Below, one piece after another: positions 3,719 through 4,231 of a stretch of 12,347 nt of DNA. This DNA is from a virus: UHGV virus genome UHGV-0179105. One strand, 5' to 3'. Both the position numbers and the translations under genes were made by a program. Under the pieces are notes generated by a model. The model saw nothing but the letters and a program-made list of their open reading frames with translations. It made no database searches and had not been told where the DNA came from. Every line of letters begins with the position of its first letter. Within the stretch, counting starts at the first letter, position 1.

Positions 3719-3892
3719 TCATTTACATTCGACAACCGACATGATGTCATAGCTGTCTGAGCCTGTATCTGTTTCTTCATCAAGACGACGTTTGAGTTCG
3801 GCTTCAGCGAGGAGTTCACAGTCGGCTACGACGAGGTACCGGTCCCAGAATTTGCGATTTCGTTCATAGACATAACAGGTATACTTTTTCAT
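3719..3892 (-). CDS. hypothetical small protein, 57 aa
   Basis: Not in track (under 60 aa). Hand translation MKKYTCYVYERNRKFWDRYLVVADCELLAEAELKRRLDEETDTGSDSYDIMSVVECK; AAAGGAAA 6 nt upstream of ATG 3892; its stop TGA lies inside the RBS region of the next gene. Confidence 0.5.
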   Translation of the reverse strand: MKKYTCYVYERNRKFWDRYLVVADCELLAEAELKRRLDEETDTGSDSYDIMSVVECK

Positions 3893-3904
3893 GGCGTATT
3901 TCCT

Positions 3905-4081
3905 TTATTGTTTAGACAGGCTTTCAAGTAGGAAGGTACATTCAGCTTTTGTTGTATTGTACTTTTTTAGCAGTTCCTCATCGTACATCGCGATACATGC
4001 TGTGTTTTCGACTGCTTCGCGATAGAAAGACAAGGCATCTGTAACAAGCTGAATCTGAAGGCTGGTTAGTTCGACTTTCAT
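3905..4081 (-). CDS. hypothetical small protein, 58 aa
   Basis: Not in track. Hand translation MKVELTSLQIQLVTDALSFYREAVENTACIAMYDEELLKKYNTTKAECTFLLESLSKQ; GAGGTG 7 nt upstream of ATG 4081. Confidence 0.5.
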   Translation of the reverse strand: MKVELTSLQIQLVTDALSFYREAVENTACIAMYDEELLKKYNTTKAECTFLLESLSKQ

Positions 4082-4087
4082 AATACG

Positions 4088-4231
4088 TCACCTCAGATTC
4101 GGATTATAAATAGTTTCCAATTCCATGCACTGATTGTGGCAGGCGCTGCCTTTGTACTCGCAATAGTGGCATTTATCAAATATGCCATCTTGCAGTTCGA
4201 GAATTGCGTCCTCGTAGGAATGGTCTGTCAT
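4088..4231 (-). CDS. small Cys4 (zinc-ribbon-like) protein, 47 aa
   Basis: Not in track. Hand translation MTDHSYEDAILELQDGIFDKCHYCEYKGSACHNQCMELETIYNPNLR with C-x2-C-x6-C-x3-C; GGAGG 6 nt upstream of ATG 4231. Confidence 0.5.
   Translation of the reverse strand: MTDHSYEDAILELQDGIFDKCHYCEYKGSACHNQCMELETIYNPNLR

Follow-up and report, generated by a model that had tools for sequence, protein, structure and literature searches.

Three short genes and their start signals

The subject of this analysis is a group of three short genes in the virus genome UHGV-0179105. The whole of this metagenome contig (ENA ERZ1034818, NODE_385, 12,347 bp) is our window. The genes, denoted m47, m58 and m57 after the lengths of their products in amino acids (aa), follow one another in that order on the minus strand and fill the space between the stop codon of an upstream 72-aa gene (4244) and the start of a downstream 79-aa gene (3701) (Table 1). 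The original prediction that three open reading frames (ORFs) of 57, 58 and 47 aa occupy this gap, each with its own Shine-Dalgarno (SD) site, is borne out both by the ORF list and by a reading of the reverse strand. These genes had also been described as missed, but this is an artifact of the ORF track, which leaves out anything below 60 aa: on this contig, the public collection's gene caller lists the 47-, 58- and 57-aa genes, along with the 53-aa and 51-aa genes discussed below, and identical proteins have also been called on four or five further contigs.

Table 1. Positions of the mini-genes and of the associated signals in the window
Feature	Position	Strand	Description
m57	3719..3892	-	57-aa ORF, ATG start
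SD of m57	3900..3905	-	AAGGAA, 7 nt before ATG, touches m58 TAA stop (3905-3907)
m58	3905..4081	-	58-aa ORF, ATG start
A6 run in m58	3963..3968	-	codons L38-K39-K40, CTA AAA AAG; T6 on + strand
m47	4088..4231	-	47-aa ORF, ATG start
SD of m58	4088..4094	-	GAGGTGA, 6 nt before ATG, overlaps m47 TGA stop (4088-4090)
SD of m47	4236..4242	-	GGAGGTG, 4 nt before ATG, 1 nt after TGA stop (4244-4246) of upstream 72-aa gene
z53	10602..10763	-	53 aa, C16-x2-C19...C35-x2-C38
e51	12135..12290	-	51 aa, no Cys

Along the gene order, the successive intergenic gaps are 12, 6, 12 and 17 nucleotides (nt). The junctions, expected to be tight or overlapping, are indeed tight, but none of the three genes overlaps another; it is the SD sites of m58 and m57 that overlap the preceding stop codon. 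The SD site of m47 is unchanged in most relatives. All three products are acidic, with isoelectric points (pI) of 4.6-4.8, which argues against DNA-binding regulators.

The three ORFs are genuine protein-coding genes, with purifying selection that is clear in the case of m47 and m57 and weak in the case of m58. Compared with individual relatives, m47 shows omega values of 0.05-0.22 and m57 values of 0.02-0.14. The pooled pN/pS in the claimed frame is 0.19 for m47 and 0.26 for m57; in the other five frames, the pN/pS of these two genes exceeds 1 in three and is 0.36-0.85 in two. Variant changes in m47 comprise 25 synonymous vs 24 nonsynonymous (ratio 0.20, binomial p = 7e-8) and those in m57 comprise 17 synonymous vs 8 nonsynonymous (ratio 0.12, binomial p = 4e-7), with a strong third-position bias in both genes. 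The ORFs stay intact, with their SD sites, in relatives at 74-98% aa identity; for m47, this retention extends down to 74% and for m57, down to 48%.

The m47 and m57 protein families

The m47 protein (pI 4.6) contains DKCHYCEYKGSACHNQCME, that is, D-K-C-H-Y-C-E-Y-K-G-S-A-C-H-N-Q-C, in which the four cysteines are spaced as C21-x2-C24-x6-C31-x3-C35, exactly the C-x2-C-x6-C-x3-C that had been reported. Among the phage relatives examined, the four cysteines are invariant with the single exception of locus L058, so that the expectation of a real gene with conserved ORF length and cysteines holds for m47, where ORF, SD site and all four Cys are kept. The exceptional variant (L058:1351-1494) carries C21W along with Y6C and L11F and may be a decaying copy or the product of an error-rich assembly.

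As far as database comparison goes, the m47 family is widespread and undescribed, with no entry in Pfam, PHROGs or NCBIfam. A word-indexed search with m47 retrieves six clusters only; a full profile search, with a profile seeded by an alignment that includes the window protein, retrieves 97 representatives at 50% identity (E <= 1e-3), nearly all of 43-75 aa. Across 76 aligned members, C24 and C31 never vary, and conservation reaches at least 90% at C21, C35, E7, I10, L11 and Q34; the window protein has every one of these near-invariant residues (E7, I10, L11, C21, C24, C31, Q34 and C35). Of the 76 members, 74 carry the Cys motif, with the central spacer ranging from x5 to x10 (x5, x6 and x7 in 25, 23 and 20 members, respectively), and the second Cys pair takes the form C-x-[NS]-Q-C, again in 74 of the 76. 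The consensus reads DYE..IL..QESE.DDC..C.YKG..C.NQCMEI...YNP.L. As defined here, the family consists of stand-alone proteins of about 45-65 aa with a D/E-Y-E..IL..Q-[ED] helix, a D-x-C-x2-C-x5-7-C-x-N-Q-C-M-E core and a Y-N-P-x-L tail, and the window protein fits this definition.

Searches of Pfam (up to E = 10), PHROGs, NCBIfam and PADLOC with the m47 protein give no match, the 76 family members have chance-level matches only in the profile libraries (phrog_1802, DDE_Tnp_1_6 and others), and a profile search of PDB sequences with the family yields nothing significant. The AlphaFold2 (AF2) model of m47, built from a seven-sequence alignment, is a two-helix hairpin (H4-27 and H29-42) with a predicted local distance difference test score (pLDDT) of 70.5. 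A Foldseek comparison of this model with the PDB returns a single match, at E = 9.7, and no structural neighbors.

Several known small Cys-rich domains resemble m47 in part. The zinc knuckle (zf-CCHC) is a C-x2-C-x4-H-x4-C module with a short, beta-hairpin-like structure, and the zinc ribbon consists of two CxxC knuckles contributed by beta-hairpins. With both of these, m47 shares four close-set cysteines, a very small size and a presumed structural metal site. However, it has no His at the ligand position of the knuckle, and its Cys residues reside on two helices in the model; unlike in the ribbon, the second pair is CxxxC, and m47 has no match to any zinc-ribbon Pfam family. Given this spacing, the lack of a Pfam match up to E = 10 and the helical hairpin of the model, the description of m47 as a knuckle protein is not supported. 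The alpha-hairpinins, such as EcAMP1 (PDB 2l2r), also combine a helix-loop-helix structure with Cys on both helices and show a local C-x-x-Q-C-M match, but the similarity is insignificant (E = 1.3). Moreover, these are secreted plant peptides in which CX3C...CX3C pairs form disulfides, whereas m47 is a cytoplasmic phage protein with a CX2C first pair.

A degenerate DNA pattern derived from the m47 family matches genomes mostly by chance, and only the hits in L028, L034 and L036 passed a hidden Markov model (HMM) check. Most of the apparently long family members are over-extended start calls, and an 819-aa candidate (P0168) was discarded as a eukaryote-like false positive of the profile. In some relatives, exemplified by a 93-aa protein (P0076, L048:7456-7737), an additional segment with a zinc-ribbon-like pair, CNMC...CPYC, comes before the m47 domain, resulting in a two-module Cys-rich protein.

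The m57 protein is modeled by AF2 as a compact beta-beta-alpha-beta structure (E2-10, E15-23, H26-40 and E48-55) with a pLDDT of 93.2. Its homologs comprise 35 protein clusters down to 65% identity, in addition to versions at 48-52%. The most conserved segment, R35-G44 (RRLDEETDTG), includes invariant R36, L37, T41, D42 and G44, and conservation is also high (at least 90%) at R35, D38, E39, E40 and T43. A 57-aa UniProt entry from Siphoviridae sp. ct96x5 (A0A8S5PRF4, "uncharacterized") is 89% identical to m57, and the two predicted structures superimpose with a template modeling (TM) score of 0.99 (E = 4.9e-9), indicating the same gene in a related phage; however, the entry carries no functional annotation and shows only that the gene has already been deposited. 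In one lineage (L013:11296-11480), a 1-nt deletion shifts the frame of m57 (product P0056, 78 aa), which could be pseudogenization or an assembly error.

Among proteins of known structure, the best superposition of m57 is with the N-terminal domain of eL20 and archaeal LX (TMq 0.78-0.84, root mean square deviation (rmsd) 1.5-2.6 A), but the E-values of 0.04-0.3 are insignificant and the identity is only 10-20%, leaving no ground for a ribosomal role. Gp2 of bacteriophage T7 is a small acidic inhibitor of the host RNA polymerase (RNAP), and in Gp2-like inhibitors, a conserved, Arg-containing, negatively charged strip binds the jaw of the RNAP beta' subunit. Like m57, Gp2 is a small, acidic, early-type single domain with three beta strands and one helix; in the Foldseek search of the PDB, it ranks 50 (4lk0_M, TMq 0.58, E = 0.69, rmsd 4.0 A), and Pfam and PHROGs reveal no sequence match between the two. 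We consider this likeness a lead only because such a simple fold is common to hundreds of unrelated small proteins.

m58, the 528-bp cassette and its phage setting

Judged by eye, m58 is probably a two-helix protein. Its 15 protein clusters are all at least 83% identical, with invariant cores, and evidently it represents a real gene family, the 58-aa allele of which is weakly constrained and dispensable or decaying in some phages. The variant changes in m58 (11 synonymous vs 22 nonsynonymous) give a ratio of 0.54 that is not significantly below 1 (p = 0.077), and the variable sites fall at codon positions 1, 2 and 3 in numbers of 11, 8 and 14, with no third-position excess. In L007, the start codon ATG is replaced by ATA; in 20 contigs from several samples, the A6 run is A7, which truncates the product to 42 aa; and in L010, L012, L013 and L053, m58 is missing between m47 and m57. 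Frameshifts or stops amid conserved nucleotide sequence, the pattern that would speak against the original prediction, are found in part for m58 (the ATA start in L007 and the A7 lineage).

These observations would be accommodated if the 58-aa m58 were nonfunctional, either a decaying remnant of a longer allele or a recently swept filler, such that only m47 and m57 matter, but we rate this possibility as unlikely. The ORF is intact in nine of the ten distinct nucleotide variants, with the strong SD site conserved, and the 15 clusters share their invariant cores. The slot of m58 is occupied in L041, L047 and L048 by a 64-aa allele (35% aa identity, hhalign E = 6.5e-5) that has its own GAGGTGA site and is clearly constrained (pN/pS 0.13-0.26), and m58 of L060 is a recombinant that joins the 58-aa and 64-aa alleles in frame. 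Furthermore, there is little power to detect selection on m58 because divergence is low.

Two other interpretations of m58 were rejected. An RNA or DNA element is not indicated, given that a diversity profile shows m58 and m57 to be similarly conserved in the same genomes and that the Rfam scan is empty. The sequence A_AAA_AAG at the A6 run is a classic dnaX-type slippery heptamer, but the only evidence for a programmed frameshift site is the homopolymer indel variant, and the A7 form is probably plain homopolymer indel variation.

The region around the trio is highly mosaic, as the gene table of the relatives makes apparent, and the order 47-58-57 recurs amid quite different flanking genes. 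In blastn comparisons of the window with L007 and L014, the shared block is exactly 528 bp long, opening at the third codon of m47 and ending shortly after the m57 stop codon; with L015, the block begins 27 nt earlier and has the same end point. The trio moves as a 528-bp cassette among neighborhoods that otherwise differ. An HMM scan of the loci shows that, in every locus of the phage group with enough sequence, m57 comes after m47, either immediately or with m58 in between, and this linkage is suggestive of a joint function. Such retention of the trio order amid shuffled surroundings makes the cassette a reasonable candidate for a functional module. Locus L060 carries two m57-family paralogs (392-574 and 1698-1874), one of each divergent type.

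The window contains 31 called genes, all on one strand, with 92.6% coding sequence and a median product of 84 aa; six of the 31 products are shorter than 60 aa and 24 have a pI below 5.5. Domain matches in the window are limited to GP88, Bro-N and a DUF5052 lipoprotein. Scans of the window with Rfam and for tRNAs found nothing. Neither plasmids nor GenBank phages give a match to the whole window in megablast, GenBank phages give none to m57 or m47 in tblastn, and a scan of the window for promoters and terminators was uninformative, with counts near the shuffle expectation. The gene adjacent to the trio that encodes a 151-aa product is carried by eight IMG/VR viral contigs of 80-147 kb, exact look-ups of relatives lead to contigs of 114-151 kb, and all relatives together are about 80-150 kb in size.

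In the relatives, the array is flanked by genes for an RVT_1 reverse transcriptase, NAMPT together with Macro and NAD synthase, RlaP, a CCA-adding/PolyA_pol enzyme, a helix-turn-helix regulator and a PemK toxin (L014-L021). NAMPT, Macro, NAD synthase, the CCA-adding enzyme and RlaP are typical content of phage counter-defense or repair islands, and the NAD-salvage genes resemble phage counter-defense against NAD-depleting systems. The accessory, early-type gene arrays of tailed phages are recognized by their presence on viral contigs, by small genes densely packed in one direction and by mosaic occurrence among relatives. The window displays all three features, and we conclude that it comes from among the accessory, and probably early, genes of a large tailed phage that has not been cultivated. 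The strong SD sites, together with the labels of the metagenome-assembled genomes that contain distant m47 relatives (Clostridiales, Lachnospiraceae, Clostridia), suggest a host among Clostridia.

Proposed function and further small proteins

On balance, we lean toward an interpretation in which the trio, real genes within a phage array, forms a portable cassette where m47 has a metal site, m47 and m57 are stoichiometric binders and m58 is optional. Under this interpretation, the three proteins would be translated from a single polycistronic mRNA with closely spaced SD sites and close translational coupling. The four Cys of m47 would hold a metal ion, most simply Zn2+, that staples the two-helix hairpin and thereby displays the conserved acidic N-terminal helix and the C-terminal YNPNL tail. 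The m47 and m57 proteins, always adjacent in this phage group, would bind a host or phage macromolecule stoichiometrically during infection, bringing about host takeover or counter-defense by binding and not by enzymatic activity, with m58 as an optional accessory partner.

Several considerations weigh against this scheme. The putative metal site of m47 is read from conservation, early expression and polycistronic transcription are assumed, and the m47 model is of moderate confidence. The searches of Pfam, PHROGs, NCBIfam, PADLOC and PDB provide no functional annotation; for m57, the fold matches in the PDB are insignificant (best E = 0.04), and the other viral fold matches are uncharacterized small phage proteins. 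The linkage does not hold in reverse, as m57 is also found alone in L006 and L020-L025, and the distant family members of m47 (L028 and L036) have neither m57 nor m58 nearby; the m47-m57 linkage itself could be simple co-inheritance of neighbors. Finally, m58 is only weakly constrained and is broken in some lineages.

An anti-defense or regulatory role, which had been proposed for these mini-proteins, is a generic expectation that is compatible with the evidence. The specific version, that the trio, or m47 with m57, encodes anti-defense proteins that inhibit a host immune system, appears doubtful to us. The proteins are small and acidic, belong to a fast-evolving gene content and are mosaically distributed, and the wider region of the relatives contains the NAMPT, Macro, NAD synthase, CCA-adding enzyme and RlaP genes; but the same features would suit any mini-protein involved in host takeover, superinfection exclusion or regulation, and similarity to a characterized inhibitor was not found in PHROGs, Pfam, NCBIfam or PADLOC. 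Part of the review literature (PMC11323111) describes many phage small proteins as acting on host defense.

A further alternative, which we regard as quite improbable, is that m47 holds not zinc but an iron-sulfur cluster and is a redox or cluster-carrying mini-protein, perhaps a dimer. In the literature, CX2CX5CX3C is a SPASM signature, a spacing that ligates auxiliary [4Fe-4S] clusters in radical SAM enzymes (PMC5715301). The exact C-x2-C-x5-C-x3-C occurs in 25 of the 76 m47 family members, four members weakly match phrog_1802, a radical SAM domain protein (best E = 1.1e-3), and a 321-aa gene near the cassette in relatives has a faint Radical_SAM match. However, the spacer varies from x5 to x10 across the family and is x6 in the window protein; the PHROG E-values are at chance level for 76 queries; and none of the 76 members has a SPASM or radical SAM Pfam match, nor is there a PDB sequence match. 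The SPASM domain has seven Cys in its motif and is attached at the C-terminal side of a radical SAM core, in contrast to the 47-aa m47, which lacks such a core, has only four Cys and is predicted to be helical, unlike SPASM domains.

The least probable alternative by far, that the trio consists of chance open frames in a noncoding spacer or that its conservation reflects an RNA or DNA element, could appeal to the abundance of short ORFs in the window (130 of at least 30 aa) and to m58, which taken alone shows no frame-specific substitution pattern, but for m47 and m57 it is effectively refuted by the third-position bias, the frame-specific pN/pS, the protein-level homologs at 45-65% identity, the confident AF2 fold of m57 and the lack of any Rfam family or tRNA in the window.

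Returning to the binder interpretation, its strongest form would have m47 found a metal-binding family of Clostridia phages that, with m57 and with or without m58, constitutes a portable module neutralizing a specific host target, such as a defense system, the RNAP or the ribosome; this we put forward tentatively and think unlikely in its entirety. If such a module does target host defense or a core machine, it would be a new small-protein inhibitor from the little-studied phages of anaerobic Firmicutes. As gene finding, the result is routine, in that small phage genes below the cut-off are real and are found by standard callers; as annotation, it is ordinary because the genes have already been called and partly deposited. 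The novelty, which is modest, lies in a Cys4 family of proteins of about 50 aa, comprising 97 or more clusters at 50% identity and not registered in Pfam, PHROGs or NCBIfam, and in a three-gene cassette conserved among large gut phages that probably infect Clostridia. The m57 protein has a confident fold and is cheap to study.

The two additional mini-genes that had been pointed out in the window, z53 and e51, exist as described, and both are under purifying selection (omega 0.06-0.2). The z53 gene starts 1 nt after the upstream stop codon, shares 4 nt (ATGA) with the downstream start and has omega values of 0.06-0.20. It had been presented as a second Cys4 mini-protein, but its fourth Cys is not conserved: among eight distinct homologs (from L006-L023, L041, L048 and L053), the fourth ligand alternates. 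Five distinct sequences have C35, and position 30 is then N, R or G; the other three have H30, with Y or M at position 35. This alternation looks like a compensatory ligand swap in a Cys3(Cys/His) metal site, which supports a real metal site in z53 and gives an independent hint that the Cys clusters of these mini-proteins are sets of ligands. Pfam DUF4428 aligns to the N-terminal CxxC region of z53 (residues 2-20, E = 0.004), but scores 17.4 bits where the gathering threshold asks for 27.8, so that z53 does not qualify as a member; the match to Zn_Ribbon_Prim is weak (E = 0.16). For the five mini-proteins and their neighbors, the sub-threshold DUF4428 hit of z53 is the only match in Pfam, PHROGs, NCBIfam and PADLOC. 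A 141-aa ORF on the minus strand (10602-11027) was rejected as an artifact of upstream read-through that overlaps a 180-aa gene in another frame; the real gene within this interval is the 53-aa one, with an internal ATG and the SD site GGGGAGGG.

The e51 gene has omega values of 0.06-0.07 in comparisons with three relatives. In one lineage (L008:2841-2997), an A5-to-A6 change shifts its frame, which could be pseudogenization or an assembly error.

Among the larger genes of the window, all on the minus strand, the 209-aa DUF5052 protein (2523-3152) has a lipoprotein-type signal peptide (MKSKSILSILLTIILALSLCSC) and adjoins the array in all relatives; it could be a surface or superinfection-exclusion lipoprotein. 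Two other neighbors are Cys-rich, namely, the GP88-family protein (1513-2172), with C-x3-C...C-x2-C, and a 224-aa protein (7243-7917), with several CxxC pairs and a weak match to zf-C2H2_6.

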